64,000 nucleotides of DNA from Escherichia coli (lineage in GTDB: Bacteria > Pseudomonadota > Gammaproteobacteria > Enterobacterales > Enterobacteriaceae), in NCBI RefSeq assembly GCF_030013595.1, contig NZ_CP122768.1; one strand, 5' to 3'. The notes under the pieces were generated by a model. That model saw only the letters and a list, made by a program, of their open reading frames with translations. It did not search any database and was not told where the DNA came from. Both the position numbers and the translations under genes were made by a program. This document shows positions 9,538-48,371 of the stretch, piece after piece. Numbering within the stretch: the first letter of the stretch is position 1; each line of letters begins with the position of its first letter.

Positions 9538-10251
9538 TCACGCCACATCACTGTCGGCATCGGGTACGCCAAACTGGCTAATCATGGTGAACGGCACTTC
9601 GCCCACGCCTGCAACATTGAGCACCGGAGAGCCGCCGTCGAGCGGGATGCGTACATCTTCCACTTCGCCGGAAACTTCAATCGGCACCTCTTCTTCCCCG
9701 GTGTTGGTCACCACCGAGACGTCGTAATCACCCGGCGGGATACCGTAATCCGCCGGATTAATCGAGAAATCCACCTGGCCTGGCCCGACGGACGAACTGC
9801 CTTCCGGGATCAGCGACACCGTATAGTCATCGCCTGCGGCATCGGTAAAGTGGAGATCGGCGGTGGTACAGGCGTCGTCAAGCGTGGCGCGACCATTAAT
9901 GGTCTGGTCGCTCACCTGCAAGGCGGTGGTCTGCACCATAATGTCGTCACCCACCAGGTTGCCGAGCGCCATTACCTGAATGTTGCTCATCAGCACCGCG
10001 TTGGTGTTGGCCTGCACGCTCATCTCTTCCATCATCGCCACCTGCGCCATCGACGAAAGCTGGTCGATGTATTCGGTGGCGTCAGTCGGGTCGGTCGGGT
10101 CCTGGTTTTGGATCTCGGCGACAAACAGCGTCAGGAAGGTATCGACGGGCGAGCTATCGCTGCTGCTTGTCGTGTCGCTGGCCGCCACGTTGTTGCTTTC
10201 CGCCGTGGCGGTCGGCTGCGGCGATTGCGCATTCAGCACCAAGGTATTCAT
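9538..10251 (-). CDS. lfgD: Flagellar hook assembly/capping protein FlgD
   Basis: 237 aa; N-terminal FlgD motif FLTLFVAEIQNQDPTDP. Confidence 0.9.
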   Translation of the reverse strand: MNTLVLNAQSPQPTATAESNNVAASDTTSSSDSSPVDTFLTLFVAEIQNQDPTDPTDATEYIDQLSSMAQVAMMEEMSVQANTNAVLMSNIQVMALGNLVGDDIMVQTTALQVSDQTINGRATLDDACTTADLHFTDAAGDDYTVSLIPEGSSSVGPGQVDFSINPADYGIPPGDYDVSVVTNTGEEEVPIEVSGEVEDVRIPLDGGSPVLNVAGVGEVPFTMISQFGVPDADSDVA

Positions 10252-10682
10252 CAGGCTTCTCCCAGTTTCAGCAAACTTTGCTGCATACTTTTCACGTTGT
10301 TGAGCACATCGACATTGGTTTCGAAATCGCGCGAGGCCGACATCATGTCCGCCATCTGTTCCACCACGTTGACGTCGGGATACCAGACATCCCCGTTAGC
10401 ATCCGCCAGCGGCGAATGCGGTTCATAGCGTTTCACCGCCCCGCCGGTTTGCAGCACGTCCTGCACCTGCACGCTGGCACCATCGATCGCATGGCGATGC
10501 GTTCCCGCCAGCAAGCTGTGGTGATACACCGCCGCAAACACCGGGCTGCGCGCTTTATACGCCTGTGCCTCGCTGCCGGCAGGTGCATTGGCATTCGCCA
10601 GGTTACTGGCAACGGTATTCAGACGTAGCGTTTGCGCCGTCATCGCCGAACCGGAAATCTGATAGATATCAGTAAATGACAT
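10251..10682 (-). CDS. lfgC: Flagellar rod protein FlgC
   Basis: 143 aa; MSFTDIYQISGSAMTAQTLRLNTVASNLANANAP. Confidence 0.9.
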   Translation of the reverse strand: MSFTDIYQISGSAMTAQTLRLNTVASNLANANAPAGSEAQAYKARSPVFAAVYHHSLLAGTHRHAIDGASVQVQDVLQTGGAVKRYEPHSPLADANGDVWYPDVNVVEQMADMMSASRDFETNVDVLNNVKSMQQSLLKLGEA

Positions 10683-10684
10683 GC

Positions 10685-11020
10685 TTATTTCCCTTCAATG
10701 GCCTCTCTGATGCCGCTGATTTGCAGATTCAGAAAGGTCAGACTGCTTTGATAATCCATACTATTTTGTGAAAACCGCGCCTGTTCACTGTTCAGCTCCA
10801 CGGTGTTGCCATCTTCCGACGGCTGCATCGGCACGCGGTACTGGACATCCACCGCCGCGTTATTTGCCCGTTGCATCTCCCTGGCAAAATCAATATCTTT
10901 AGCCTTGAAATTTGGCGTATCGACGTTCGCCAGATTCGCAGTCAGTAGCTCGGTCCTCTCAAGACGTAACTTCACTGCCTGCGGATGCACTCCCAATGCT
11001 TGTTGAAAACTGATCCCCAT
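10685..11020 (-). CDS. lfgB: Flagellar rod protein FlgB
   Basis: Start set at the internal ATG (11020) because the predicted sigma-54 promoter lies at 11057-11072; an upstream ATG at 11050 is the alternative; motif LANVDTPNFKAKDIDF. Confidence 0.8.
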   Translation of the reverse strand: MGISFQQALGVHPQAVKLRLERTELLTANLANVDTPNFKAKDIDFAREMQRANNAAVDVQYRVPMQPSEDGNTVELNSEQARFSQNSMDYQSSLTFLNLQISGIREAIEGK

Positions 11021-11056
11021 TCTCTGCGTCACTCCTGCTTCAATCCGCATACGCTA

Positions 11057-11072
11057 AGCAATCGCTGTGCCA
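11057..11072 (-). promoter_or_regulatory. Sigma-54 (-24/-12) promoter for the lfgB operon
   Basis: Minus strand reads TGGCAC-AGCGA-TTGCT, an exact match to TGGCAC-N5-TTGC, about 35 nt upstream of the lfgB start; a sigma-54 activator (lafK) is encoded in the locus. Confidence 0.6.
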
Positions 11073-11101
11073 TTTTTTAAGTGACTGATGAGAAAGGGTT
11101 T

Positions 11102-11839
11102 ATGAGTTTTCAATTTTGCAGGCGGAAGTTTTATTTCCTCCTGGCGCTGACCTTACCGGGCTACGCCGCCGTCCACCCCGTGCAACACAGCGCGCGGGAA
11201 CAAGTCAACGCCCAGGTACTGAATGCCGCGAGCCAGGAAATTGAATCGCTGGCGCAACAGCGGCGCTGGCATGACTATCGCTACACCTTTAAGGTCTATA
11301 TTCCCTCGCAGATTGCGACCGCCGCCCCCTGTGCGACTACACCCGGCGTCACGCTCACTTCGCCTGCGGAAATCACCCTCAACCGGATGAACTTCACCGT
11401 CAGTTGCCCGCAAAGCTGGCAGATGAACGTGGCGGTGCGCCCGGATGTTCTGGTGCCGGTGGTAATGGCGAAGTCACTGGTTGCCCGCGACACGCCGCTC
11501 ACGGCAAATGATGTGGAGTTGAAGCCCTACAACGTCAGCGCCCAGCGCCGCAATGTGTTGATGGATCCCGATGACGCGATTGGTTTCAGCAGTAAACACG
11601 CGCTGCAACCGGGCAGGCCCATCACCAAAGAAGAGCTGGTTTCGCCAGTGCTGGTCGAACGCGATCAGCCGGTGATGATTGTTTACCAGAGCGCGGGGAT
11701 CACCGCCTCGATGCCCGGCGTGGCGCTGAAAAATGGTCGCAAAGGCGAGATGGTGAAAGTGCGTAACGCCAGCAGCCAGCGGGTCATCAGCGCGATGGTG
11801 GCGGAAAGCGGCGTGGTAACAACGGTAAGCGCGGAGTAA
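11102..11839 (+). CDS. lfgA: Flagellar P-ring formation chaperone FlgA
   Basis: 245 aa with signal peptide, divergent from lfgB; ATG at 11102 preceded by agaaaggg. Confidence 0.8.
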   Translation: MSFQFCRRKFYFLLALTLPGYAAVHPVQHSAREQVNAQVLNAASQEIESLAQQRRWHDYRYTFKVYIPSQIATAAPCATTPGVTLTSPAEITLNRMNFTVSCPQSWQMNVAVRPDVLVPVVMAKSLVARDTPLTANDVELKPYNVSAQRRNVLMDPDDAIGFSSKHALQPGRPITKEELVSPVLVERDQPVMIVYQSAGITASMPGVALKNGRKGEMVKVRNASSQRVISAMVAESGVVTTVSAE

Positions 11840-12026: not shown

Positions 12027-13451
12027 ATGTCTGAATTTGAATTGCTCGTGAAAGATCTTCTTTTAAAATCAGAAGAAGACGAGAAAAAGCGACAAGAAAA
12101 AGATCGAGAATTAATTTCAAAGGTTCTTGAAATCTATGATCAAAAATATGTTGCAGAACTCCTACGAAAAGTAGGAAAAAATGAATGGAGCAGAGAAACA
12201 CTTAACCGTTGGATAAATGGTAAGTGTAACCCTAAACAATTAACTTCTGCTGAGGAAACTTTACTTCGAAAGATGCTTCCAGAACCTCCCGAACATCATC
12301 CTAACTATACATTTCGTTTTATTGATTTATTCGCAGGGATTGGTGGTATTCGTAAAGGCTTCGAAAATATTGGTGGGCAGTGTGTTTTTACTAGCGAATG
12401 GAATAAAGAAGCGGTAAGAACCTACAAAGCTAATTGGTTTAATGATGAACTAAATCATAAATTTAATCTTGATATACGAGAAGTCACTTTAAGTGATAGA
12501 GATGATGTTTCCGAAATGGAAGCCTATAATCATATAGACAAAAATATTCCAGATCATGATGTCCTTCTGGCCGGTTTTCCATGTCAGCCCTTTAGTCTGG
12601 CTGGGGTAAGCAAGAAAAATTCTCTGGGGCGTGCACATGGTTTTGAATGTGAGGCACAAGGAACACTATTTTTTGATGTCGCTCGAATTATTAAATCAAA
12701 AAAACCAGCTATTTTTGTGCTTGAGAATGTGAAGAACCTTAAAAGTCATGATAAAGGTAAGACTTTTAAAGTCATCATGGAAACACTCAATGAATTAGGG
12801 TATGAAGTCGCCGATGCTGGTGTGACTGGCTCAGATGATCCTAAAATTATAGATGGAAAACATTTTTTACCCCAACATCGTGAGCGTATAGTGTTGGTAG
12901 GATTTCGTAGGGATCTAAATATTCACAAGGATTTCACGTTACGAAATATTAACCGCTTTTACCCTCAAAACAGGCCAACATTTGGTGAATTATTAGATCA
13001 TGATGTTGACGACAAATATATTTTGACTCCAAGGTTATGGGAATATCTTTACAATTATGCAAAAAAACATGCAGCAAAAGGAAATGGATTTGGTTTTGGT
13101 TTAGTGGATCCTAAAAATCCAGATAGTATCGCACGAACGCTGTCTGCTCGTTACCATAAAGATGGCTCTGAAATACTGATCGATCGTGGCTGGGATAAGG
13201 CTGTCGGTGAAATCGATTTTAGTAATCCAGCGAATCAAGAGAATCGACCAAGAAGACTGACACCTCATGAATGTGCCAGGTTAATGGGTTTTGAAAAACC
13301 AGGGGGAAGACCTTTTAGAATACCTGTATCAGATACTCAAGCTTATAGACAATTTGGGAACTCAGTTGTTGTGCCAGTATTTGAAGCTGTAGCAAGATTA
13401 CTAGAACCGTACATACAAAAGGCTGTCAGCATGCAAGTTATTAACGATTAA
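12027..13451 (+). CDS. DNA (cytosine-5)-methyltransferase, Dcm / M.EcoRII-like
   Basis: 474 aa; C5-MTase motifs [40 protein letters not shown]; close to E. coli Dcm along its length; AT-rich codon usage unlike its neighbours. Confidence 0.9.
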
Positions 13452-13475
13452 TAATAATTAACTTTCACTATTGTG

Positions 13476-13497
13476 AGGCCTTTTTTATTAAAGGCCT
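13476..13497. terminator. Hairpin between the convergent methyltransferase and restriction enzyme genes
   Basis: aggccttt-tttatt-aaaggcct: 8 bp perfect stem in an AT-rich context. Confidence 0.5.
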
Positions 13498-13538
13498 CTA
13501 AATATATAATCATAAGTTATTATAAGTATACTTTTATA

Positions 13539-14744
13539 TTATATAAAATCTTCATACAGCGTTATTAACTGTGTGATAAAACCCTCTAACGTTAATAATC
13601 CATCCCTGATTTCCTCCGGATATTTTTTATGAAGAGGGGAAGGTACAACCAAGGTGACACCTTCAGCTCTCATTTCGTTAAATTGAGCAACTGAGACACC
13701 CTCTTGTAAGGTAAACAAATATATTTTGTTGATTTTATTTGCTTCATTGAGTGCCTGACGCCACCGATCCTTACATGTTGTTTTTACAGCAAGCATACGG
13801 AGTTTTTCTCTTGGAAAGTGATCATCATGGTAAGCTGCCGCTGATGGAAAAAGAAAATCGGGTTTCTTTTTTCCTTCAGTAATACATTGAGTAGCAAAAT
13901 GATGCAGTCCATGCTCAATAAAAATTTGCTCAAGATGTAGCTCCAGTGATTTCCCGGCTCGAGATTTTCTTCGATTACTAACAGAGTTAGCCATAGCTAT
14001 AAAATCATCTACAGAACCAAACCCTTGACGGATGATGTCCAGTACGTGAATTTCTTCAACCATTAGAAAGAGATCATATTCAATACGGCGGCGTTCTAAA
14101 AGTTGGTCATCTGGACTGGTTACGCCTGTTGGGTAATAACCCGCAGCATATTGAATAATCTCTAAGCCAGAAGGAAAGCTATGTTTCCAGCTTTCCGGAA
14201 TAACATATTCCTTTTGAGAGATTTTTGGCCTTGATGCGAGTACACCAAGTATTTCACTGGCAGGCCCAAACATTAAAGTTCCAGGAATGATCTCCCCAAT
14301 AGCTGATTCCAGTACATCCTCTTCTTCTGGGCTAACACAAACCCATACATCAACACTTTTGCTGTCTCTCCCTGGCTCATGTTCAAACGCAAGCACAGAC
14401 AAAGCACCTGTATTTTCCGGATCCTGTAGGGGACTGCCAGCCCCCCACCGAGTGATGCGTTTTTCATTTCTTGTTTGCCCGAAATACTTATTATTGTAGT
14501 AAATAGCGCGAACCTCACTGTCTACACATTCATGAGAGGAATAAGTTGCGCGCAATAAAACCGAAGGATTTTTTTCTGACGTATGATCTATAGATGGGAA
14601 AAGTTCAGCGACGATACCAGAAGGGATATATACCCCCACTTGATGCCCTCCTGTTGCACCAGTGTCGTTTGCTGAAAGACGTTTAATATAGAGATAGTTG
14701 TTACCACCGACCTTATCAAGCAGCCAATCTTGTAATCCTGACAT
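13539..14744 (-). CDS. Type II restriction endonuclease, EcoRII family (expected target CCWGG)
   Basis: 401 aa; N-terminal YIKRLSANDTGATGGHQVGVYIPS and the remainder match my recollection of EcoRII; convergent with the Dcm-like gene as in EcoRII systems; AAGGA ribosome-binding site upstream. Confidence 0.8.
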   Translation of the reverse strand: MSGLQDWLLDKVGGNNYLYIKRLSANDTGATGGHQVGVYIPSGIVAELFPSIDHTSEKNPSVLLRATYSSHECVDSEVRAIYYNNKYFGQTRNEKRITRWGAGSPLQDPENTGALSVLAFEHEPGRDSKSVDVWVCVSPEEEDVLESAIGEIIPGTLMFGPASEILGVLASRPKISQKEYVIPESWKHSFPSGLEIIQYAAGYYPTGVTSPDDQLLERRRIEYDLFLMVEEIHVLDIIRQGFGSVDDFIAMANSVSNRRKSRAGKSLELHLEQIFIEHGLHHFATQCITEGKKKPDFLFPSAAAYHDDHFPREKLRMLAVKTTCKDRWRQALNEANKINKIYLFTLQEGVSVAQFNEMRAEGVTLVVPSPLHKKYPEEIRDGLLTLEGFITQLITLYEDFI

Positions 14745-14797
14745 AAGACATCCTTATTTTTGCATAGTATCCGATTCAGATTTTTCCACATATCCAT

Positions 14798-14831
14798 CAG
14801 AACGACCAGAACGACCAGAACGACCAGAACC
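14798..14831. repeat. 9 bp tandem repeat (CAGAACGAC) x about 3.7
   Basis: cagaacgaccagaacgaccagaacgaccagaacc, 54-87 bp upstream of the restriction enzyme start codon. Confidence 0.9.
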
Positions 14832-14868
14832 AACATATCTGAACAAAAAGTAAATATGCGATAACGAT

Positions 14869-14896
14869 TAAAGTTTTGCCGCCTGTTAACCGCTTT
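14869..14896 (+). promoter_or_regulatory. Candidate sigma-28 (class 3) promoter for lfgMN
   Basis: Perfect -35 TAAAGTTT at 14869-14876; weak -10 (ACCGCTTT against GCCGATAA) after a 12 nt spacer; about 40 nt upstream of lfgM. Confidence 0.3.
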
Positions 14897-14934
14897 ACCG
14901 GAGTAACCCACCTAAATACCGAGACGAGGTTGCG

Positions 14935-15210
14935 ATGAAAATCACCCCGACTATGCCAGGCAATCGCCCGACAGTCACAACGGCAGGCTCCAGCCAGCCG
15001 CGCAAAGGCACGGCGACCACCACGACGCTAAGCGCCGACGACATTACCCAGGCGGGATTGCAGTCTGCCCAGCAAACACTGAACGACCAGCAAGAGAGCG
15101 ATATCGACAGCGATAAAGTGGCGCAAATGCAGGCGATGCTGGCCTCCGGCAGCCTGCAAGTGGACACCGAACAGTTAGCCAGCGACATGCTGAGTTTTTT
15201 CCAGAACTAA
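14935..15210 (+). CDS. lfgM: Anti-sigma-28 factor FlgM
   Basis: 91 aa, small acidic protein ending SDMLSFFQN; followed by the flgN homologue. Confidence 0.8.
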   Translation: MKITPTMPGNRPTVTTAGSSQPRKGTATTTTLSADDITQAGLQSAQQTLNDQQESDIDSDKVAQMQAMLASGSLQVDTEQLASDMLSFFQN

Positions 15211-15222
15211 GAGGCCGATGAA

Positions 15223-15651
15223 GTGAGTATCAGGTTACAACAGGTGAAGGCGTTGTTGCAGGGAATTCGTGACGATGACGCGCTGTATGATTCCCTGCGC
15301 GAACTTCTCCAGCGCCAGCGGATCTGCATGATTCGCCGCGCCAGCGAAGAGCTGCTGGCGGTAAACGAGGAGATAACCCATCACTATGAGCAGTTGCATG
15401 GGCATAGCCATCAGCGACACAGCCTGCTGAAAATGCTCGGTGTTAGCGTAAATCGTGACGGTCTGGCGCAGGTATTTGCCTGGCTTCCGGCGGTACAAAA
15501 AGCGGCAGCACAACAGTTGTGGCAACGCCTTGAGCAAAAAGCGGAACGCTGCAAAGCCTACAACGACAAAAACGGCGAGCAGTTGATTCGCCAGTATGAA
15601 TTTATTCAGTCTTTTTTAGGCAGCGAAGCGGATTTTCTGTACCAGGAATAA
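15223..15651 (+). CDS. lfgN: Flagellar export chaperone FlgN
   Basis: 142 aa helical protein; GTG start preceded by gagg. Confidence 0.75.
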   Translation: MSIRLQQVKALLQGIRDDDALYDSLRELLQRQRICMIRRASEELLAVNEEITHHYEQLHGHSHQRHSLLKMLGVSVNRDGLAQVFAWLPAVQKAAAQQLWQRLEQKAERCKAYNDKNGEQLIRQYEFIQSFLGSEADFLYQE

Positions 15652-15728
15652 CGACCATTCCTTCCCCCATCGCGGAAACGGATTTTCCGCCTGATTCACA
15701 ATCCTTTGTTTTTGATTATAAAAAATCA

Positions 15729-15745
15729 CGGCACGCTTATTGCAC
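15729..15745 (+). promoter_or_regulatory. Sigma-54 (-24/-12) promoter in front of the hypothetical gene and glycosyltransferase
   Basis: cGGCACG-CTTA-TTGCA matches TGGCACG-N4-TTGCA with exact spacing, 34 nt upstream of the ATG at 15779. Confidence 0.6.
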
Positions 15746-15778
15746 ATTCCGCAAAGTAATAAAGACTGGAAGCCACCT

Positions 15779-16609
15779 ATGAGTTTTATTGAATGTTACG
15801 AACCGGAATACGTGCGCAATTTTATGACGCAATATCCCGATTCGCCTTTGTACATCCGCAAGGTGTGGAAAAACGAGATTCGCCTGAGCCTGATGCTGAC
15901 AGAGCCAGAAAGTTGCGAAGCGGTGCTCAACGATGCCAGGGCCTTTGATTTACAGCTCACCTACCGCCCGGCGGAAGAAAATGCCGCAGAGCTTTCCGCG
16001 CGCGATGCGATAGTAAACCAGGTCATTTTGAGTACCCTCACGCTCCCCGATTTAACCCCAGAGCTTTCACTATATGCCATCGGGATTTTACTCTCCCGCG
16101 CCAGCAAAATGCCGGGCAGAGACGGAGATATTCTTGCCCGTTTGACGACGCTGCCGCAGGCGCTGGCCGATCATGCGAAAAAAGGCACGCTACAGGCACA
16201 GTTCGCCCAACTTCCGCCCGTGCCACAGCTGGCGCGTCACCTGGCCACGCTACTCGGGAGTTTTACGTTTGACTGGTCGATTTTGCCGGAAAGCCCGCGC
16301 AAAACTTCGCTGCCGTTGCAGATGCCTTTGCTGGCGCTACATGACGCCAACAGCGAAGCCCTGGTGCAACAGCAGCTTCAGGCTCAGTGGCAAACCACCT
16401 GGCAACAGCATTTTGCCACCGCGCCCTGGATGATGCGTAACTGGCTGATTTACCGCGTTTACCATGAGGTGATTGGACAGGCAGACGGAGCAGATTATTG
16501 CCCGCTGGTGTGCGATTTTTATCTTATCCGCACGTTAATCAGTTTTATGGACGCTGGATGGTTCTCCGCTGCGACAGGAGGATATTTTCGCCCTTTTTGC
16601 GGTGTTTGA
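15779..16609 (+). CDS. Hypothetical protein (Flag-2 accessory)
   Basis: 276 aa ORF from the ATG after the sigma-54 promoter; the 3' end may be frameshifted (see findings). Confidence 0.55.
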   Translation: MSFIECYEPEYVRNFMTQYPDSPLYIRKVWKNEIRLSLMLTEPESCEAVLNDARAFDLQLTYRPAEENAAELSARDAIVNQVILSTLTLPDLTPELSLYAIGILLSRASKMPGRDGDILARLTTLPQALADHAKKGTLQAQFAQLPPVPQLARHLATLLGSFTFDWSILPESPRKTSLPLQMPLLALHDANSEALVQQQLQAQWQTTWQQHFATAPWMMRNWLIYRVYHEVIGQADGADYCPLVCDFYLIRTLISFMDAGWFSAATGGYFRPFCGV

Positions 16610-16729
16610 ACGCTGGCGAGAGAGTGAAAATGCGCTGTTTATTCGCCAGCAAATTCAGTCGTTATGTGCGGCAGAGCCGCTGCTTTCAGCATTTTCGCTG
16701 CTGACGTGAGTCGCTCTGTGCGCGCTTTT

Positions 16730-16840
16730 CCCCTCACCCTAACCCTCTCCCCAAAGGGGCGAGGGAACCGATCGAGCACGGTGTTAAAATCGGCGCTGGT
16801 TTTCTCCCCTCTCCCTGTGGGAGAGGGTCGGGGTGAGGGC
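16730..16840. repeat. GC-rich palindromic intergenic repeat, composite copy (near-identical to 6460-6570)
   Basis: cccctcaccctaaccctctccccaaaggggcgagggaaccgatcgagcac ... ctccctgtgggagagggtcggggtgaggg. Confidence 0.85.
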
Positions 16841-16888
16841 ATCAGCACGCACATTCATCACATTCACCCCTTAACTCACCCAGACACC

Positions 16889-19360
16889 ATGCCAACACAA
16901 ACCATCATCAAAACACTCGCCACCCACCGCGAAAAACCGTTTGTCAGCGTCGTCACGCCAACCTGGAACCGTGGCGCATTCCTGCCGTACCTGCTTTATA
17001 TGTACCGCTATCAGGATTACCCGGCAGACCGCCGCGAACTCATCATCCTCGACGACTCGCCGCAAAGCCATCAACACATCATCGACCGCCTGACCAATGG
17101 CACACCGGAAGCCTTTAACATCCGCTATATTCATCACCCGGAAAAACTGCCACTGGGCAAAAAACGCAACATGCTCAACGAACTGGCGAGCGGCGAATAC
17201 ATCCTCTGCATGGACGATGACGACTACTACCCGGCAGATAAAATCTCCTGGACCATCGCCATGATGCAAAAACATAGGGCGCTCATCTCCGGCTCCGACC
17301 AGATCCCCATCTGGTACAGCCACATCAACCGCATTTTCAAAAGCCGCAGCTTTGGCCCGCATAACATCCTCAACGGCACCTTTTGCTATCACCGTAACTA
17401 CCTGAAAAAGCACCGTTACGACGACGATAGCAATTTAGGCGAAGAGAAAAGTTTCACCAACAATTTCAGCGTTAACCCGCTACAACTGCCCGGCGAGCGC
17501 ACGATTCTGTGTATCTCGCACAGCCACAACACCTTTGATAAAGACTTTATTCTCGGGGCCAGCACGCCTGTAAACGCGGCGCTTACGGATATCGTCCGCG
17601 ATCCGCTGCTCCGCAATGCTTATCTGAGTCTGCATAACGCCACTCATCACCAGGCGATCAACCATCAGGCGATCGATCAGATCGTTCTGCTGAATCTGGA
17701 TAAACGCCCGGATCGCTTACAACAGATCCGTGAAGAACTGGCATTGCTGCATATTCCACCTGAGAAGATCACCCGCCTTGCCGCCAGTGAAGATCAAAAC
17801 GGTCAACGGGGTCGCCGCCAGTCGCACTTGCAGGCGCTGCGCCTGGCGCAACAGCACGGCTGGCAAAACTATCTGCTGCTGGAAGATGACGCGGTTATTC
17901 TCAAGCAGGAGAAACATATTCAGGTGCTGAACACGCTGCTGGCGAGCCTGGCGAAAATTCCCTGGCAGGTGATGATCCTTGGCGGCGAAATTTCGCAAGG
18001 AACTATGCTAAAAAGTTTGCCGGGGCTGGTGCACGCGCGGGACTGCCGCAAAGTGTGCGCTTATCTGGTGAACAGCCGCTACTACCCGCAACTGGCGCAG
18101 CAGATGAGCAACGATGAGCACTCGCTGGAAGCCTGCTGGCAGCCGCTGCTACACGCCGACAAATGGCTGGCCTGTTACCCGAGCCTTTGTTACCAGCGAC
18201 CGGGCTTTAGCGATATCGAGAAAAAAGTCACCGACAACATTAGTCACTATTTCAATAAGTTACACGTAACCACCAAGCCATCCACGTTACCCATCGCCGA
18301 CACCATCGGCTTTTTTATGGAAACCTCATTCCACTACGCGCTGTATCGCCCAATCATCACCGCTCTACAGGCGCAGGGGGAGAGCTGCACGCTGGTGATC
18401 AACGACCGCGTGTTTAAACCGTTTCTGGATGAAATGCTGGAGACGCTAAAAAGCATCGACGACCCACAGCTTAAAGGTATGCGCTTGTCTGAGATGCAGG
18501 CACACGGCCAGCGGATGAAATGCCTGGTCAGCCCCTACCACACGCCCGCGCTCAATGGCCTGGCAGCGGTGAACGTTCGCGCCATGTATGGCTTAGCCAA
18601 AGAAACGTGGAACCACGCCGACTGGAACCGTTTTTATCAGCGCATTTTGTGTTACAGCCACTACAGCCAGCAGGCGCTGGCGCATTTCGGTAGCGCAAAA
18701 GTGGTCGGCAACCCACGCTTCGACGCCTGGCATAACGGCACGTTCGACCGCACTCTGCCGGAAAATATCCAACCCGATTCCTGTAAACCTACGGTGCTCT
18801 ACGCCCCTACGTTTGGCGCACTAAGCTCCCTGCCCCACTGGGCAGAAAAATTAGGCCGCTTAAGTGGCAATGTGAATCTGATTTGCAAACTGCACCACGG
18901 CACCTGCTCGCGCCCGGAAGAAACTGCATCGCTGGCACTGGCGCGCAGGCATTTAAAACGGCGCACCGACTCCGCCCGCCACACGCTGGCGCTGCTGGCA
19001 AAGGCCGATTACGTGCTGACCGATAACAGCGGCTTTATTTTCGATGCTATTCACGTTGATAAGCGGGTGATCCTGCTCGACTTTCCGGGCATGAGTGAAT
19101 TGCTCGACGGCGAGAAAAGCTACTCCACGCCGGAGAGCGCCGATCAGCAAATCCGCGAAATATTGCCGGTGGCTCATGATATGGCAGAGTTGCGTTACTT
19201 GTTGTCAGAGGCGTTTGACTGGGGGGCGGTGCAGACACGGCTTAAGGAGATTCGTCATCACTATTGCGATGCGTTTATGGATGGCAAGGCGGGAGAACGG
19301 GCGGCGATGGTGATTGTTGAGGCGCTGGCGGACAAGGAACCGTCAGGGATATGTCGATAA
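16889..19360 (+). CDS. Three-domain glycosyltransferase: GT2 + GT25-like + TagF-like CDP-glycerol glycerophosphotransferase
   Basis: 823 aa from the ATG at 16889 (the longer ORF from 16664 runs through the repeat). GT2: VSVVTPTWNRG, ILDDS, CMDDDD. GT25-like: IVLLNLDKRPDR, LLLEDD. TagF-like: GNPRFD, VLYAPTFG, LTDNSGFIFD. Confidence 0.85.
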   Translation: MPTQTIIKTLATHREKPFVSVVTPTWNRGAFLPYLLYMYRYQDYPADRRELIILDDSPQSHQHIIDRLTNGTPEAFNIRYIHHPEKLPLGKKRNMLNELASGEYILCMDDDDYYPADKISWTIAMMQKHRALISGSDQIPIWYSHINRIFKSRSFGPHNILNGTFCYHRNYLKKHRYDDDSNLGEEKSFTNNFSVNPLQLPGERTILCISHSHNTFDKDFILGASTPVNAALTDIVRDPLLRNAYLSLHNATHHQAINHQAIDQIVLLNLDKRPDRLQQIREELALLHIPPEKITRLAASEDQNGQRGRRQSHLQALRLAQQHGWQNYLLLEDDAVILKQEKHIQVLNTLLASLAKIPWQVMILGGEISQGTMLKSLPGLVHARDCRKVCAYLVNSRYYPQLAQQMSNDEHSLEACWQPLLHADKWLACYPSLCYQRPGFSDIEKKVTDNISHYFNKLHVTTKPSTLPIADTIGFFMETSFHYALYRPIITALQAQGESCTLVINDRVFKPFLDEMLETLKSIDDPQLKGMRLSEMQAHGQRMKCLVSPYHTPALNGLAAVNVRAMYGLAKETWNHADWNRFYQRILCYSHYSQQALAHFGSAKVVGNPRFDAWHNGTFDRTLPENIQPDSCKPTVLYAPTFGALSSLPHWAEKLGRLSGNVNLICKLHHGTCSRPEETASLALARRHLKRRTDSARHTLALLAKADYVLTDNSGFIFDAIHVDKRVILLDFPGMSELLDGEKSYSTPESADQQIREILPVAHDMAELRYLLSEAFDWGAVQTRLKEIRHHYCDAFMDGKAGERAAMVIVEALADKEPSGICR

Positions 19361-19449
19361 AATTCGATTTTTTAAACATGTCGTTGGAATACGTTTATGC
19401 CATCGACATGTTTTGGCGATATGTCGAAAAAACACGATTTTTTAAACAT
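19348..19449. repeat. Two 32 bp direct repeats with an internal inverted repeat
   Basis: gatatgtcgataaaattcgattttttaaacat (19348-19379) and gatatgtcgaaaaaacacgattttttaaacat (19418-19449); catgtcg ... cgacatg inverted repeat between them. Confidence 0.85.
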
Positions 19450-19504
19450 ATTTAACATAGCCAAACGGCAGACGGCATCATCTTCTCTCACAGCGGGAAT
19501 TAAA

Positions 19505-19909
19505 TCAGTAGGTGGCTGATTTACCCCTAATCACCTCAATGATCCCCGTCGTCGACACCGACGGCGTGCGGGGGAAATACACCACCTCACAAATATACGC
19601 AAAGCTGTCAAACTTCCCTGCCCAATCATCACCCATCACCAGAATATCCGCACCGTACCCCCGCAGATACTCCGCTTTCTGCTCCAGCGATTCTTCCAGA
19701 AATACGCCATCCACGCACGCCAGCCCGGCGATGATCGCCATGCGGTCATCCTGATGGTAAACCGGCGCTCTGCCCTTTTTGGCAATATTTAAGGCGTCGG
19801 ACGATACGCCGACCAGCAGCCGTTCGCCCAGCGTGCGGGCGCGTTGTAAAAGGCGCAGATGACCGACGTGAAACACATCGAAGGTGCCAAAGGTGATGAC
19901 CGTTTTCAT
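19505..19909 (-). CDS. Glycerol-3-phosphate cytidylyltransferase (TagD-like)
   Basis: 134 aa from MKTVITFGTFDVFHVGHLRLL; MGDDWAGKFD and VVYFPRT match TagD-type cytidylyltransferases; start codon is 2 bp from the lfiJ stop. Confidence 0.85.
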   Translation of the reverse strand: MKTVITFGTFDVFHVGHLRLLQRARTLGERLLVGVSSDALNIAKKGRAPVYHQDDRMAIIAGLACVDGVFLEESLEQKAEYLRGYGADILVMGDDWAGKFDSFAYICEVVYFPRTPSVSTTGIIEVIRGKSATY

Positions 19910-19911
19910 GG

Positions 19912-20346
19912 CTACTCCGCTAATTTGTGCCGCAGCCAGCACTGAACGGCGATATCGTCCACCGCTTTTTGCGCTTTCGCGTTGGCGCTTTCCTGCTGCT
20001 CGCGGCGTTTGTCGTCCAGCGTCAGGGCCACCACTTTCTCTTCGCACGCCGCCGCCGTCAGGTTTTTCTGCATTCGCGTGGCTTTGATGTTAGCCAGCGT
20101 TTTTTCCTGCTCCTGCCATGCGATCACCTTGCGCAAAGTGCCTTTGTAGCCGCTGACGTTTTTCAGCGATTCCACCGACGCCGCCGCGCCCGCAGACGTT
20201 TTCTCCACAAGGTAGCCTAACGCCTTGATATTGTTGTCATAGCCCGCGCAGATCTGTTTTTGCTTTGCCAGTTCGACGGTTTTGTCTTTGACCGATTTAT
20301 CCCGCAGGCGCTGCAACTGCGCCAGGGTGTCGATGATTTGTCGCAT
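19912..20346 (-). CDS. lfiJ: Flagellar export chaperone FliJ
   Basis: 144 aa coiled-coil protein after the FliI ATPase. Confidence 0.8.
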   Translation of the reverse strand: MRQIIDTLAQLQRLRDKSVKDKTVELAKQKQICAGYDNNIKALGYLVEKTSAGAAASVESLKNVSGYKGTLRKVIAWQEQEKTLANIKATRMQKNLTAAACEEKVVALTLDDKRREQQESANAKAQKAVDDIAVQCWLRHKLAE

Positions 20347-25387: not shown

Positions 25388-26374
25388 TCAGGAGAAAACT
25401 TCAATACCGTGCTTGCGCATGGAGGCCAGTCGATAGCGCAGTGCGCGCGGGGTAATGCCTAACAGGTCGGCAATTTTGCTGCGGTTGCCCTGATATTTAC
25501 GCATCAGGTCGGCGATATATTGATACTGGGCGCTACGTCCGGCCTGGCCTAAATCGCTGGTTTCCGCAACAGATACGGAGGGCTGAATGGGCCATTGCAG
25601 TTCGCTGTGGTCGGCAATGTCATTTTCCGGCAGGCCTAACGCGTCCGGGTAAATCACGCCGTCGCGATTTAAAATCATTCCCCGCTGAATGGCGTTTTCC
25701 AGCTGGCGCACATTACCCGGCCAGCGGTAATTCAGCAGCGCACGGCGGGTAGATTCCGAAAGGGTGATATTTTTCACCAGCACCGTGGAGTATTTTTTAA
25801 TAAATGACTCTGCCAGCGGAATAATATCGTTCAGACGTTCACGCAGCGGCGGCATGGTAATAGGAATAACCACCAGACGATAATAGAGATCTTCACGAAA
25901 ACGCCCTTCGGCGACTTCCTGCTCAAGGTTTTTATTGGTGCAGGCAATCAGGCGAAAATTGAGTTTAATTTGTCGGTTGCTGCCTAATCGCTCAACCTGT
26001 TGTTCCTGCAATACGCGTAATATTTTGGCCTGTAATGCCAGCGGCATATCGCCAATTTCATCGAGCAATAAGGTGCCGTTATTTGCCAGTTCCATTTTGC
26101 CTGGCACGCTGGCAATTGCGCCGGTAAATGCGCCTTTGTCGTAGCCAAATAATGTAGCTTCCAGCATGTTTTCCGGGATCGCCGCGCAGTTCACGCCGAC
26201 ATAGGGTGCGCTTTCATTTTCACCAAAGGCTACGGTGTGAATATATTTTGCCACGCACTCTTTGCCCGCGCCGGTTTCGCCCTGAATGAGCACCGGCACG
26301 TTAAATGCGGCGACACGCTTTGCCAGAGTAAAAGCGTTAATGCTGGAAGCGGCAGTTGCAATAAGTTCAGACAT
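25388..26374 (-). CDS. lafK: Sigma-54-dependent transcriptional activator (AAA+ domain plus C-terminal HTH, no N-terminal regulatory domain)
   Basis: 328 aa; Walker A GETGAGKE within 35 aa of the N-terminus; GAFTGA-type loop; C-terminal Fis-type HTH; an in-frame stop 26 codons upstream rules out a longer N-terminus. Confidence 0.85.
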   Translation of the reverse strand: MSELIATAASSINAFTLAKRVAAFNVPVLIQGETGAGKECVAKYIHTVAFGENESAPYVGVNCAAIPENMLEATLFGYDKGAFTGAIASVPGKMELANNGTLLLDEIGDMPLALQAKILRVLQEQQVERLGSNRQIKLNFRLIACTNKNLEQEVAEGRFREDLYYRLVVIPITMPPLRERLNDIIPLAESFIKKYSTVLVKNITLSESTRRALLNYRWPGNVRQLENAIQRGMILNRDGVIYPDALGLPENDIADHSELQWPIQPSVSVAETSDLGQAGRSAQYQYIADLMRKYQGNRSKIADLLGITPRALRYRLASMRKHGIEVFS

Positions 26375-26527
26375 AGGGTGAACGATATAAGTAGCGACAA
26401 TAATCAGGATGTTCTGAAGCGTATCACCGGCGGGATTAACAAGTTCGAATTAAACGATAATAAAAATATTATTTGATGGTAAACAATGAGTTAGATATTA
26501 ATACTGTTAATTTGGACATCTGTGATG

Positions 26528-26568
26528 CCCCCTCACCCTAACCCTCTCCCCGGATGGGGCGAGGGGAC
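26528..26568. repeat. GC-rich palindromic intergenic repeat, single unit
   Basis: cccctcaccctaaccctctccccggatggggcgaggggac in the lafK / lfiM divergent region. Confidence 0.8.
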
Positions 26569-26746
26569 AGACCGCAGACTGATTGGCGAAAATCACTCCC
26601 ATTAAGCAATTAATCGATTAATTATTTTTTCATCCTATTAATAATTTGCCCCTTTCACTCCCCCTCTATTTAATACCTCACCTTGTGTCACTGCCGGATT
26701 TGCGTGCACAAAATCGCCCATACCATTACAGCAGAGAAAGTAAGCC

Positions 26747-41107: not shown

Positions 41108-42679
41108 TTACTGAGAGCTCAGATCAACTTTCCAGGGCAACAGATCGCGTACCCGGTTTGCCGGCCAGTCCTGGATATGTTCAATGACGTAACGCAGCCA
41201 CTTTTCTGGCTCCACATTGTTCAGACGGCATGTGCCGATCAGCGAGTACAACACCGCCGCATGTTCACCACCGCTGTCGGAACCCGCGAACATCCAGTTT
41301 TTCCGGCCTACGGCCACTCCCCGTAAGGCGTTCTCTGCGATGTTGTTGTCGATTTCCACCCAGCCATTACTGCAGTACACGTTCAGTGCATCCCACTGTT
41401 TCAGCAGGTATGCGAACGCTTTTGCCGTATCTGAGTGACGCGACAGTGTTTTCATCTGTTGCTGTATCCAGTCATACAGTGACTGCATCAGTGGCGCGGC
41501 TCTGGCTTTTCTTGCCGCCAGACGCTGTTCTGCTGAACAGCCCCGGACCTCTGCCTCGATGGCATACAGTTCACCGATACGCTGCAGGGCTTCCGTGGTG
41601 ATGTAGGTGGGCGCTCTTGCATGCACATCGTGGATTTTTCTCCGGGCATGAGCCATACACGCGGCTTCCGTTATTCTGCCGGATTCGTATAACGCCCGGT
41701 AACCACCGTAAGCATCGGCCTGAAGCACACCGCTGTAACCGGCCAGGTGATTTTGTGGATGGATACCTTTCCGGTCCGGACTGTACGCGAACCAGACCGC
41801 CGGGGGCATCTGTGAACCGGCGTTACGGTCATCACGGACGTAGACCCACAGCCGGGCTGTCCGGGTTTTACCGCTGCCCGGCTCCTGGACCGGGACGGGG
41901 ATATCATCAGCATGGACTTTACCGGGCATCAGCACATACTGGCGCAGGACGTCATACAGCGGCTCCAGCAGTTCAGCAACAGCACCTGTCCAGCGCCCCA
42001 GTGTGGCACGGCTCAGCTCCACTCCCTGACGACGGTATATTTCTGACTGGCGGTATAACGGCAGATGGTCTGCATATTTCCCGGTGACAACATGGGCCAG
42101 AAGCCCCGCTCCGGCATAACTGCGTGCAATGGGTTTTGAAGGTACTGGTGCCTGTACGATATGGTCGCACCGGCAACAGGCCTGTTTCGGACGTTGTGTT
42201 TCGATAACCTTAAAGGCGCTGCTGATAAGCTCCAGTTGCTCTGACACATCACATCCCAGAGAACTGAGTTCACCACCACAGGCAGGACAGCATTCCTCTT
42301 CCGGCCGGATAACCCGGGTTTCACGGGGAAGTGAGGCCGGTAACGGTTTACGGGCTGAAGACTGGCGCAGGGCGGATGGCAGTACCGGGTCATATTGCTC
42401 ACCCAGCGTTTCCGCCATTTCTTCCTGAAGTGCGCTGATTCGCTCCTGTGCTTCCTGTATCTGCCGTTCGGTTTTTGCACGAAGTTTTTCTGAGCTTTTA
42501 CCGAACTGCATACGTTGCAGTTTCGCAACCAGCGCCTTCAGCCGGTTGATTTCGGAAGCATAAGCCGCCACCCGCTGTGAGAGCAGGCGGTTGTATTCAG
42601 CCATCTGGCGGATGGTGTCCTGTTGCGTCTGCAACAGTGCCCGCAGGCGGGCGTTCTCATGAGCAAGTGAGGTGTCCAT
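41108..42679 (-). CDS. IS66-family transposase TnpC
   Basis: 523 aa; N-terminal coiled coil, Cys-rich zinc-finger region, DDE-type catalytic core. Confidence 0.9.
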
Positions 42680-45737: not shown

Positions 45738-48371
45738 TTAATCCGTTTCAAAAATAATCTGTTCATCCTCATCAACACGAATGCGGATTTGCGTGATGGC
45801 CGTTTTCTCTGTCATCGCCTGCAACCAATAACGGGACAGTTGTGGGAGGATATGTTGTTCGATATAGCCGATGAGCAAACGAGCGCCGGTCTCGTGCATC
45901 GGGCAGCGCGACACAATATGCGTAATCAGTTCATCGCCATACACCAGTGAAACGCCATGCCGCTCCGCCATCCGATCCATCAATCTGCCAAGATGCAGGC
46001 GGGCAATAACACCACGCGCGGTCTCATCCAGCGGTAAATAAGGAATAACCGTCACACGCCCCAGGAAAGCCGCCGGGAAGTGTTTACGTAACTCCGGCAT
46101 TAACGCCTCTTTTAACCCTGCCGAATCGGGCATCAGCGCCGGATCTTCACAGAGCTGGCTGATAAGTTCCGCCCCCGCGTTAGTAGTCAACAACAGCGTG
46201 GTATTTTTGAAATCGATGTGGACACCTTCGCCATCTTCCATCGCCCCCTTATCAAACACCTGGAAGAACAGCTCGTGGACGTCGTGATGGGCTTTTTCAA
46301 TTTCATCTAGCAATACCACGCTCCAGGGATGGCGGCGTACCGCTTCCGTCAACACACCGCCTTCGCCATAGCCGACGTAGCCGGGCGGCGCGCCTTTCAG
46401 AGTGGAGACTGTGTGAGACTCCTGATACTCGCTCATGTTGATGGTGATCAGATTCTGTTCACCGCCATAGATTGCTTCTGCCAGTGCCAGCGCGGTCTCA
46501 GTCTTGCCTACTCCGGACGGCCCGGCCAGCAAAAAGACACCCACAGGCTTACGCGGGTCACCTAAACCCGCCCGCGCGGTCTGGATACGCTCGCCAATCT
46601 GCGCCAACGCATCCATCTGCCCGGTAACACGCTGCGCCAAACGGGTGGGCAATTCCAGTATCTGACTGGCTTCATCTTTCACCATCCGTCCGGCGGGAAT
46701 ACCGGTCCAGTCGGAGACAATCTCTGCCACCACGGTTGCACTGACTTCCGGGTACACGACAGGGTTTTCACCCTGCCAGCCTCTTAATGCCGTTTCTGCC
46801 TGTTGTAGAGTGATTTCGTCGCGCTCGCCAGGCGCTGCGCCGCGTTGCTCCTGTAAACTGCGAACCAACTCCAGTTCCTGCTGCCACCGCGCTTCGGTGT
46901 CAGAAAGATCGGCATTAAGCGATATAATCCGCGCCGTCAGTACATCGCCCCGCTCCGAGCGGATACCCATTTTTTCCTGCTTTAATAACAACTCCTGCTC
47001 CAGTTCGGCAGCGTTGAGCTGCTGGCGCAGATACTGGACTCTCGCAGGCGGGGTATGCAGCGACAGCGCTACACGGGCCGCCGCCGTATCCAACAGGCTG
47101 ATGGCCTTATCCGGTAGTTGCCGGGCCGGAATGTAACGGTGAGAAAGCTGTACGGCGGCGCGCACGGCCTCATCAAGAATCAGGACATCATGGTGTTCTT
47201 CAAGCGTGGTGACTAATCCGCGCACCATCTCAACAGCCGCAACCTCTTCCGGCTCAGCAACCTGCAATACCTGAAAACGCCGGGTCAGCGCCGGATCCTT
47301 TTCGATATGGCGTTTGTACTCGCTCCAGGTGGTTGCGCCGATGGTGCGCAGAGTGCCACGCGCCAGCGCCGGTTTCAGCAAGTTGGCAGCATCCCCCGTA
47401 CCGGATGTACCACCAGCGCCCACCAGGGTGTGAACTTCATCAACAAAAAGTATCACCGGCTGCGCCGAGCGCGCGGCCTCTTCCAGCAAAGCTTTCAGGC
47501 GGGATTCAAATTCACCCTTCATGGACGCCCCAGCCAGCAGCGCTCCAACATCCAGTGACAGCAACCGCACGTTACGCAGTGAAGGCGGCACTTCCCCCCC
47601 GGCAATCGCCAGCGCGAATCCTTCCACCACTGCCGTTTTCCCGACCCCCGCCTCGCCGGTCAGCAGCGGGTTGTTCTGGCGACGGCGCAGCAGAATATCC
47701 GTCATAGTACGGATCTCGTGTTCGCGGCCGGTGACCGGATCGATATTGCCTTCACGGGCCAGCGCAGTCATGTCCTGGCAGTATTTCGCCAGCGCGGATT
47801 TACTTCCGGTTGATTCGCCGGCAAAGACCTGGCTAGCTTCCCCCGGTACTGCAGAATTTAAATCCGAGCCGTCATAAGGCATTTCTGTTAATTCAGGAGA
47901 TGAAGTGATTAAAGACGGAAGAATATCTAATAGTTCATCTACCGGTAGCTCTGCCAATGGCGCACAAATATTTTTTAACACCCGACACAATTCTGGCGTG
48001 GTTAACCAGGCAAGTAATAACCATCCACTACGAATTTTTTGATCGCCAAAGCGGATACTTGCCAACATCCAGGCTTTTTCAACAGAAAGATCGATATGAT
48101 GGGAAAAATCGTTAATTACACTCGCTCCGGCAGGCAATATATTCAATTGCTGAATTAACGCCTTCTCAACATCAGCAGATGTTATTTGATAATGTCGAAG
48201 CACATTGTGAATGTCATTCTCTGGTTGTTGTATTAACTGATGCAACCAATGCGTCAGTTCGACATAAGGATTAGCGCGTAATTTACAGAACGTCGTCGCA
48301 GATTCCAAAGATCTAAACAAAGATTTGGTTAGCTTTCCATACAGTGCACTGCGCGAAACAGGAGTGTCCAT
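45738..48371 (-). CDS. clpV: T6SS AAA+ ATPase ClpV (TssH)
   Basis: 877 aa; two AAA+ modules (GEAGVGKT, GPSGVGKT) and a ClpV-type N-domain. Confidence 0.9.
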   Translation of the reverse strand: MDTPVSRSALYGKLTKSLFRSLESATTFCKLRANPYVELTHWLHQLIQQPENDIHNVLRHYQITSADVEKALIQQLNILPAGASVINDFSHHIDLSVEKAWMLASIRFGDQKIRSGWLLLAWLTTPELCRVLKNICAPLAELPVDELLDILPSLITSSPELTEMPYDGSDLNSAVPGEASQVFAGESTGSKSALAKYCQDMTALAREGNIDPVTGREHEIRTMTDILLRRRQNNPLLTGEAGVGKTAVVEGFALAIAGGEVPPSLRNVRLLSLDVGALLAGASMKGEFESRLKALLEEAARSAQPVILFVDEVHTLVGAGGTSGTGDAANLLKPALARGTLRTIGATTWSEYKRHIEKDPALTRRFQVLQVAEPEEVAAVEMVRGLVTTLEEHHDVLILDEAVRAAVQLSHRYIPARQLPDKAISLLDTAAARVALSLHTPPARVQYLRQQLNAAELEQELLLKQEKMGIRSERGDVLTARIISLNADLSDTEARWQQELELVRSLQEQRGAAPGERDEITLQQAETALRGWQGENPVVYPEVSATVVAEIVSDWTGIPAGRMVKDEASQILELPTRLAQRVTGQMDALAQIGERIQTARAGLGDPRKPVGVFLLAGPSGVGKTETALALAEAIYGGEQNLITINMSEYQESHTVSTLKGAPPGYVGYGEGGVLTEAVRRHPWSVVLLDEIEKAHHDVHELFFQVFDKGAMEDGEGVHIDFKNTTLLLTTNAGAELISQLCEDPALMPDSAGLKEALMPELRKHFPAAFLGRVTVIPYLPLDETARGVIARLHLGRLMDRMAERHGVSLVYGDELITHIVSRCPMHETGARLLIGYIEQHILPQLSRYWLQAMTEKTAITQIRIRVDEDEQIIFETD

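Follow-up and report, generated by a model that had tools for sequence, protein, structure and literature searches.

A candidate flagellin-modification cassette with a three-domain transferase in the Escherichia coli Flag-2 locus

The DNA considered here is a window of 64,000 nucleotides from the chromosome of Escherichia coli (contig NZ_CP122768.1 of assembly GCF_030013595.1), which contains the Flag-2 locus for lateral flagella. Within this locus, positions 15729-19909 sit between the genes lfgN and lfiJ, in variable region 1 (VR1), and hold three genes: lafV, which is a pseudogene in the present strain, a gene for a transferase of 823 amino acids, and a homologue of tagD. With moderate confidence, this cassette can be regarded as a set of flagellin-modification genes, whose products would build a short glycan capped with glycerol-phosphate on LafA, the lateral flagellin.

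In the proposed mechanism, the lafK-lfiEFGHIJ message would yield TagD from its end, and this enzyme would convert cytidine triphosphate (CTP) and the central metabolite sn-glycerol-3-phosphate to cytidine diphosphate (CDP)-glycerol. The 823-amino-acid protein, predicted to be soluble, would owe its transcript to a LafK/sigma-54 promoter lying upstream of lafV and would act in the cytoplasm on LafA before export. Its glycosyltransferase family 2 (GT2) domain, and probably its GT25-like domain too, would put one or two sugars on serine or threonine residues, and its C-terminal TagF-type domain would then transfer glycerol-phosphate from CDP-glycerol to the glycan. This would give the glycan a cap that is joined by a phosphodiester and carries negative charge, or possibly a short chain. 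LafV would be responsible for a separate modification, presumably lysine methylation, and a frameshift would have removed this activity from the present strain.

Modification of flagellin by way of CDP-glycerol and a TagF-type enzyme had been put forward in an original prediction, made from the sequence alone. The domains, the conservation of the promoter, the co-occurrence of tagD and the gene arrangement in Enterobacteriaceae bacterium RIT691 all speak for it. Three parts of that prediction did not stand, namely its view of the first gene, its claim of novelty and the polymer that it implied.

Genes of the cassette and their conservation

The order of the open reading frames (ORFs) agrees with that first described, in which a hypothetical gene, the 823-amino-acid protein and a small TagD-like gene follow one another between lfgN and lfiJ. 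The motifs quoted at that time can also be located, those of the transferase in the 823-amino-acid protein and FGTFDVFHVGHLRLL in an ORF of 134 amino acids.

The transferase gene occupies positions 16889-19360 on the plus strand. An AlphaFold2 (AF2) model of its product, built on 38 homologues with a mean confidence (pLDDT) of 86, consists of three domains (residues ~14-250, ~260-460 and ~470-817) with low-confidence linkers between them. The highest Kyte-Doolittle value over 19 residues is 1.42, which predicts no transmembrane helix and a soluble protein. The proposed combination of GT2, GT25-like and TagF-like domains was recovered by profile or fold searches for each domain: PF00535 was found directly, and PF01755 and PF04464 through relatives and fold.

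Domain 1 (16928..17638, plus strand; residues ~14-250) is a GT2-family glycosyltransferase with the GT-A fold. It matches PF00535 with an E-value of 2.1e-16 over residues 20-133, and the same family is matched in 21 of 21 orthologues. The motifs LDDS (residues 54-57) and DDDD (109-112) are invariant among the orthologues. Sequence matches in the PDB include AvpGT (9jma, 1.5e-8) and TarS, and structural matches found by Foldseek are TarS, AvpGT and SpsA.

Domain 2 (17666..18268, plus strand; residues ~260-460) is a divergent GT25-like domain, also of the GT-A type, with the motifs LNLDKRPDR (268-276) and LLLEDD (329-334). The E. coli protein itself shows no match to the GT25 family PF01755 even at E<=10; the orthologue from Plesiomonas matches it at 5e-6. 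A word-indexed homology search with the middle domain alone returned mostly fragments of the same protein, and only three remote matches were informative. The remote relatives P0299-P0301, with 25-31% identity and ~90% coverage, carry PF01755. By fold, the top PDB match of domains 1 and 2 together is human COLGALT1/GLT25D1 (Foldseek E 1e-17, ~550 columns), and domain 2 matches a stand-alone GT25 protein of Y. pestis in the AlphaFold Database (30% identity, TMt 0.86).

Domain 3 (18297..19339, plus strand; residues ~470-817) has a GT-B fold and belongs with the TagB/TagF-type CDP-alcohol phosphotransferases. Its motifs are GNPRFD (607-612), YAPTFG (638-643), KLHH (667-670) and TDNSGF (711-716). 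The direct match to PF04464 is marginal and under significance, with an E-value of 0.023 when the full protein is searched and of 0.0047 when the domain is taken by itself. An exhaustive HMMER search finds 444 proteins at E<1e-10. Out of 30 relatives from this search, 29 match PF04464, and a profile of the relatives recovers the PDB entries of TagF, TarL and Cps3D with E-values of 1e-8 to 6e-14. H669, within KLHH, aligns with His584 of TagF and is invariant in a family alignment of 30 sequences. His584 and His444 are the reported active-site histidines of S. epidermidis TagF. With the co-occurrence of tagD in support, domain 3 is predicted to transfer sn-glycerol-3-phosphate from CDP-glycerol.

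Homologues of the transferase vary in their third domain. P0078 and P0079 keep domains 1 and 2 (~72% identity) and carry in third place a Capsule_synth domain (PF05159, KpsC/KpsS-type). Versions of ~470 amino acids with only two domains are common. From the PF05159 replacement and the two-domain versions, the third domain looks like an exchangeable module.

The tagD homologue (19909-19505, minus strand) encodes a protein of 134 amino acids that resembles glycerol-3-phosphate cytidylyltransferase. Residues 1-129 match B. subtilis TagD (1coz) at 48% identity with an E-value of 1.4e-32, and a second TagD/TarD structure (2b7l) is matched at 1.6e-27. Both signature motifs, HxGH (as HVGH) and RTxGISTT (as RTPSVSTT), can be found. 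The product of the enzyme is most likely, though not certainly, CDP-glycerol.

The gene is the last of the lafK-lfiEFGHIJ unit. Only the two letters CC stand between the lfiJ stop codon TAG (19914-19912) and the tagD ATG at 19909, and the 2-bp gap reported earlier can thus be read directly in the sequence. No sigma-54 consensus occurs in the lafK-lfiM intergenic region, so tagD is probably not itself sigma-54 driven.

A second, fragmentary tagD is seen in Escherichia sp. E1V33 (locus L007, 10559-10868), directly after the transferase gene and covering residues 30-54 and 64-134. The same locus keeps an intact tagD beside lfiJ, and the fragment looks like a remnant of a duplication or rearrangement.

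Evidence that the genes belong together comes from a comparison set of 31 loci from other species, whose neighbouring genes were mapped. In this set, lafV and the transferase gene occupy the edge of the variable region that borders lfgN, and tagD occupies the edge that borders lfiJ. These edge positions are kept in Escherichia, Pseudocitrobacter, several Citrobacter clades, Enterobacter and Pseudescherichia. Where a locus with tagD extends as far as lfiJ, the two genes are directly adjacent in 18 of 19 cases; in the remaining one, L023, they are ~775 bp apart. In Citrobacter, up to ~6 kb of extra cargo can be found between the transferase gene and tagD. The comparison with other Flag-2 loci suggested in the original prediction shows gene positions and promoter element recurring across genera.

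The coupling of tagD to domain 3 can be expressed in numbers. A tagD gene is present in 20 of the 21 loci whose transferase has canonical domain-3 motifs, and it is absent from all six in which domain 3 is missing (L025 and L029-L031) or degenerate (L021 and L022). The association has a nominal Fisher p of 2e-5, a value that is not corrected for shared ancestry.

The two degenerate cases, Leminorella grimontii (L021) and Citrobacter freundii M-21 (L022), have long transferases in loci without tagD. Their motifs read YAPSLD and YAPALN, and SDDDARLFDA and GDNRALLFDA. L021 has an extra GT25-like gene instead of tagD.

An example of the cassette at another site can be found in Enterobacteriaceae bacterium RIT691 (L016, 5202-12481). 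Here tagD, lafV and the transferase gene directly follow one another on the same strand, flanked by one lafA gene on each side and beside fliD. This arrangement supports both the cooperation of the three genes and flagellin as their target. All other loci with the three-domain transferase and recovered flanks have it in Flag-2 between lfgN and lfiJ. The RIT691 transferase gene is directly followed by a gene for an EAL-domain protein, similar to cyclic di-GMP phosphodiesterases (10570-11403).

The three domains and tagD are under purifying selection. The ratio of nonsynonymous to synonymous substitution rates (dN/dS) lies between 0.04 and 0.22 for every domain and for tagD, similar to the values for lfgN and lfiJ. 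Against orthologues, the transferase gene as a whole gives 0.07-0.16, domain 1 gives 0.04-0.16 and tagD gives 0.04-0.08.

A sigma-54 element of the -24/-12 type, CGGCACGCTTATTGCA, is located upstream of lafV (15729..15744, plus strand), with GG at 15730-15731 and GC at 15742-15743. It has one mismatch to TGGCAC-N5-TTGCW and the canonical GG-N10-GC spacing. Its end (15744) is separated from the lafV ATG at 15779 by 34 nt, and transcription is predicted to start ~10 nt downstream of the element. Sigma-54-like matches are not enriched in the window (27 found, 44 expected), and it is because of its intergenic position and its conservation that CGGCACGCTTATTGCA appears to be more than a chance match.

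The conservation can be seen in 16 loci from at least five genera, these being the loci where lfgN and lafV are separated by 128 bp or more; they come from Escherichia, Pseudocitrobacter, several clades of Citrobacter, Phytobacter, Leminorella and others. GGCA(C/T) and TTGC are invariant in all 16 while the flanks diverge. On average, a specified position holds 1.65 bits of information, compared with 0.42 for the 3' flank and 0.81 for the 5' flank, and two distant loci carry the perfect consensus. The near-consensus element of the original prediction is in this way supported by conservation. Two Enterobacter loci have a spacer of only 24-27 bp without the -24/-12 element; because of this, their lafV and transferase genes are probably read through from lfgMN.

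Another perfect consensus, TGGCACAGCGATTGCT, lies at 11057-11072 on the minus strand, directly upstream of lfgB, which heads the operon lfgBCDEFGHIJKL. The locus also encodes LafK, the sigma-54 activator noted earlier, which has no receiver domain (25388-26374, minus strand). We infer that the lafV promoter depends on RpoN and LafK.

Upstream of the -24 element, at ~15700-15728, the DNA is A/T-rich, and TTGAT or TTGAA recurs 10-30 nt away from the element. This stretch is partly conserved across genera (L009-L027) and could be a site for integration host factor or part of the activator site.

Alternative explanations

The proposed modification of Flag-2 flagellin is well supported in silico, and a number of observations count against it. 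The transferase's own Pfam scores are non-significant for two of its three domains (none for GT25, 0.005-0.02 for PF04464), and these assignments are transitive and structural. His444, the catalytic base of TagF, lies beyond the reach of the alignment; the residue at its likely position may be Tyr567, which is invariant in the family and belongs to the candidate motif MYGL. The tagD product scores 114.4 bits against TIGR01518, under the equivalog cut-off of 165.4. One locus, L020, has a canonical domain 3 and no tagD in the region. In E. coli, lafV and the transferase gene are 280 bp apart, and the long palindrome in this spacer could attenuate sigma-54 read-through into the latter. The lafV gene is frameshifted in the present strain, as is lfgC in strain 042, and in E. 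coli EC958 neither LafA nor Flag-2 motility was detected under laboratory conditions (PMC4637896). Because of this silence and these two frameshifts, the cassette may operate rarely or never in many strains.

The last points bear on the alternative that survives best, although it is unlikely: that the cassette persists in E. coli as a silent relic, inherited with Flag-2, neither expressed nor needed and so of no present function in this strain. Besides the undetectable expression in EC958 and the scattered pseudogenes, a restriction-modification system has been inserted between lfgA and lfgM and a repeat element between lafV and the transferase gene. Against a relic, the reading frames of the transferase and of tagD are intact in the window, as is lfgC, and every domain has a dN/dS of 0.04-0.2, like structural flagellar genes. 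Among 5426 complete genomes of E. coli there are also 1277 that contain at least 80% of the region 15600-20000.

In a second alternative, which is quite unlikely, the architecture is the same and the donor is different. The TagD-like enzyme would activate another phospho-alcohol, and domain 3 would transfer that group. Candidates are ribitol-5-phosphate, phosphoethanolamine, phosphocholine and, following the example of C. difficile and P. aeruginosa, a phospho-amino acid. Because the TIGR01518 score falls under its cut-off, the alcohol activated with CDP is uncertain. The superfamily includes ethanolamine-phosphate and choline-phosphate cytidylyltransferases, which the tagD product also matches (3elb at 5e-16 and 3hl4 at 2e-6), and the characterised flagellar TagF-like enzymes use CDP-threonine or CDP-methylthreonine. 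Two solved TagD/TarD enzymes are, however, by far the best matches, over the full length and at 48% identity. Furthermore, VR1 of E. coli has no gene for an unusual phospho-alcohol and no methyltransferase like FtaC or PA1088, and glycerol-3-phosphate needs no additional pathway.

If CDP-glycerol is the donor, as preferred here, domain 3 can act as a primase or as a polymerase, and sequence cannot tell these apart. For a single glycerol-phosphate cap the chances are about even, provided that the locus is expressed. It is improbable that domain 3 is a polymerase like TagF, which would place poly(glycerol-phosphate) on the short glycan of the lateral flagellin in E. coli and its relatives and give a Gram-negative flagellar filament a polyanionic coat resembling teichoic acid. 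The term "teichoic-acid-like", used for the glycan in the original prediction, implies a polymer and is overstated, since the characterised flagellar enzymes FtaD and PA1091 add a single phospho-linked cap.

A further alternative, very improbable, is that the cassette is cargo that modifies an envelope polymer, such as the lipopolysaccharide (LPS) core, O-antigen, capsule or enterobacterial common antigen, and that its flagellar location is incidental. GT2, GT25 and TagF families are best known from the synthesis of LPS, capsule and teichoic acid, and VR1 is an integration hotspot with unrelated cargo, the window itself containing EcoRII/Dcm genes. Incidental cargo would not readily explain why the edges held by lafV and the transferase gene and by tagD are kept in several genera, why the three genes moved jointly in RIT691 to a site between two lafA genes, why tagD lies inside a flagellar export operon with a gap of 2 bp, or why the sigma-54 promoter resembles that of lfgB. 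The cassette also has no genes for a flippase, a polyprenyl-phosphate transferase or an exporter, and its enzyme is without a predicted transmembrane segment.

Lysine-linked glycosylation, which the likeness to COLGALT1 together with LafV might suggest, was rejected, since there is no hydroxylase and no support for it and GT25 enzymes act on many acceptors.

LafV, intergenic elements and neighbouring genes

The first gene of the cassette, taken as hypothetical in the original prediction, is lafV, a pseudogene here according to an alignment with strain 042 and the RefSeq annotation of a near-identical strain. It covers 15779..16709 on the plus strand, of which 15779-16609 can be read as an ORF. 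Relative to strain 042, the alignment places an inserted T at ~16543, which moves the stop from ~16709 to 16609 and shortens the product from 309 to 276 amino acids. In strain HCP5S3_I2, which is 99.9% identical, RefSeq labels the gene "lysine-N-methylase, frameshifted".

LafV is assigned to a FliB-like "lysine-N-methylase" family. Its score against the FliB profile NF038110 of NCBIfam is 37 bits, under the cut-off of 85; the match covers profile positions 105-338 of 373 and leaves the first ~100 unmatched. The intact homologue from RIT691 reaches 55 bits against the same cut-off. LafV has no Pfam-A match in the release used, no relative in the PDB and no PHROG match. Its relatives, of 309-315 amino acids, carry a precomputed PF27117 assignment and the NCBI name lysine-N-methylase. 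The methylase name thus derives from the sub-threshold NCBIfam match and from NCBI names, and the link to FliB is a weak one.

Several elements can be recognised between the genes. Directly after lfgN there is a stem-loop without a T-tract, GCGGAAA-cggat-TTTCCGC (15672..15690, plus strand). Hairpins occur in the same place, with different letters in the stem, in Citrobacter and other loci, which suggests a conserved RNA element; it probably marks where the lfgMN transcript has its 3' end or contributes to the stability of that RNA.

The 280-bp spacer between lafV and the transferase gene contains a GC-rich palindromic repeat of 137 bp (16717..16853), with inverted arms of 48 nt, CCCTCACCCTAACCCTCTCCCC...GGGAGAGGGTCGGGGTGAGGG. 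A related copy of the palindrome is present at ~26525-26570, in the lafK-lfiM spacer, and, as part of the query, the element recurs in E. coli genomes with a median of 8 places in each. In Citrobacter the corresponding spacer is much shorter than in E. coli.

The convergent transferase and tagD genes are separated by a structured spacer (19348..19449). Two direct repeats of 32 nt, 70 bp apart (19348-19379 and 19418-19449), flank an inverted repeat of 18 nt (19374-19413), and the spacer may serve both genes as a terminator or be a repeat element of small size.

An Rfam scan of 14700-20100 gave no family above threshold. Four matches to eukaryotic miRNA or lncRNA families below threshold, three in the two palindromic spacers and one in lafV, were discarded as noise. 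A consensus scan of the region for sigma-70 promoters and terminators found nothing above shuffled expectation.

On the left, the cassette is preceded on the plus strand by lfgM (14935-15210) and lfgN (15223-15651). On the right, beyond tagD, lfiJ (20346-19912) begins the series lfiJIHGFE-lafK, on the strand opposite to lafV and the transferase gene. Positions 15600-20000 share 99.9% identity with strain HCP5S3_I2 and 94.7% with E. coli 042, where the order is likewise lfgN-lafV-transferase / tagD-lfiJ. The Flag-2 locus of strain 042 was reportedly first described by Ren et al. in 2005.

The lfgC gene (10251-10682, minus strand) is an intact ORF of 143 amino acids in the window and is frameshifted in strain 042, so the structural part of Flag-2 may be more complete here than in that reference strain.

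A low-GC island at 12027-14744, between lfgA and lfgM, has a GC content of 0.35-0.44 against ~0.56 around it. It carries convergent genes for a Dcm-type cytosine methyltransferase (12027-13451; PRK10458, 912 bits) and a restriction endonuclease of 401 amino acids (13539-14744). This island is missing from strain 042; EcoRII/Dcm cargo has been described in 21 Escherichia flag-2 loci (De Maayer 2020, PMC6993521). Beyond Flag-2 and the yafK-fadE region, the window includes an IS66-family transposase gene (41108-42679) and a gene for the type VI secretion ATPase ClpV/TssH (45738-48371).

Relation to known systems

The genes of the cassette have been described before. De Maayer et al. (2020, PMC6993521) defined VR1 as the region between lfiJ and lfgN and reported GT2-1 in 222 strains, TagD in 235 and LafV in 342 of 592, and they list TagB in VR1 too. 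From genomics, they proposed teichoic-acid-type glycopolymers as part of the flag-2 flagellin glycan (PMC6993521). The locus and genes are those of 15729-19909, and the 823-amino-acid protein is their GT2-1. Both the genes and the hypothesis were available, and the novelty suggested in the original prediction, whose author knew of no described enterobacterial system with this three-domain architecture, is overstated. Some orthologues of the large protein also already bear NCBI names.

There are differences in what was recognised. The large protein was classed as GT2 only, TagB-type phosphotransferases were treated as separate proteins, and promoters receive no mention in the parts of the text covered by the search (PMC6993521). 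What is added here is the GT2 + GT25-like + TagF-like architecture, a sigma-54 element that is conserved, the tie of tagD to an intact domain 3, the gene arrangement in RIT691 and the lafV frameshift. The value of these additions is limited by the earlier publication of genes and hypothesis, and by Flag-2 expression that is yet to be seen in E. coli.

In the wall teichoic acid systems of Bacillus and Staphylococcus, which use TagD together with TagF, TagB or TarL, and with the TagF-like capsule polymerases Cps3D and Bcs3, the acceptor is lipid-linked or a polymer chain; here it would presumably be a protein-bound glycan. Domain 3 is without the N-terminal membrane-association region of TagF and is instead fused to two GT-A domains. 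Domains 1 and 2 resemble COLGALT1, which likewise has tandem GT-A domains, the second of GT25 type, and which also glycosylates a protein. The identity is 12-13%, and the TM-scores of 0.29 and 0.41 are low because the domains are oriented differently. COLGALT1 acts on hydroxylysine, and the E. coli protein shows no sign of that chemistry.

If the proposed function is correct, the CDP-glycerol/TagF chemistry known from teichoic acids of Gram-positive bacteria serves in Enterobacteriaceae to decorate a protein, the lateral flagellin. A full-text literature search for flagellin with phosphoglycerol found no report, and glycerol-phosphate on flagellin, even as a single cap, would then be the first such modification to be reported. 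The cassette occurs in about one in four complete E. coli genomes, among them lineages of the ST131 type. As the cassette is common, the modification could affect the antigenicity, TLR5 recognition or phage susceptibility of the second flagellar system.

The closest parallels are found in two flagellin-modification systems. In P. aeruginosa PAO1 (b-type), flagellin carries an O-linked sugar with a phosphodiester-linked substituent; PA1091 (FgtA) is a GT2 domain fused to a TagF/CD0244-like phosphotransferase, and flagellin of the pa1091 mutant is unglycosylated (PMC11833859). The PA1088-PA1091 genes and the E. coli cassette both combine a GT2-phosphotransferase fusion with a separate nucleotidyltransferase for a CDP donor. 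This likeness is drawn from the published description of the P. aeruginosa genes. Unlike PA1091, the E. coli protein also carries a GT25-like domain in its middle part. The donor proposed for P. aeruginosa is CDP-N,N-dimethylthreonine, made by PA1088-1090, and such enzymes are absent from the E. coli cassette.

In C. difficile 630, the Type A system (CD0240 and FtaABCD, which is CD0241-CD0244) uses the TagF fold to modify flagellin after glycosylation, as is proposed here. In vitro, the TagF-like enzyme FtaD takes phospho-N-methylthreonine from a CDP donor and places it on GlcNAc-FliC (bioRxiv 10.64898/2026.02.12.704994). That system differs in consisting of separate enzymes, where the transferase domains of E. 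coli are fused, in its donor CDP-N-methylthreonine, and in belonging to the primary flagellum of a Gram-positive host.

In 15729-19909, a glycosyltransferase, a TagF-like phosphotransferase and a nucleotidyltransferase are predicted jointly inside Flag-2, and neither an FtaA-like enzyme nor an FtaC-like methyltransferase is found between lfgN and lfiJ in the window or in strain 042. Because there are no enzymes for a CDP-amino acid, the cassette would work like FtaABCD and PA1088-PA1091 with a different and simpler donor. CDP-glycerol, if it is this donor, would be the third for the class of phospho-linked modifications made after glycosylation of flagellin, beside those of the C. difficile Type A and P. 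aeruginosa b-type systems.

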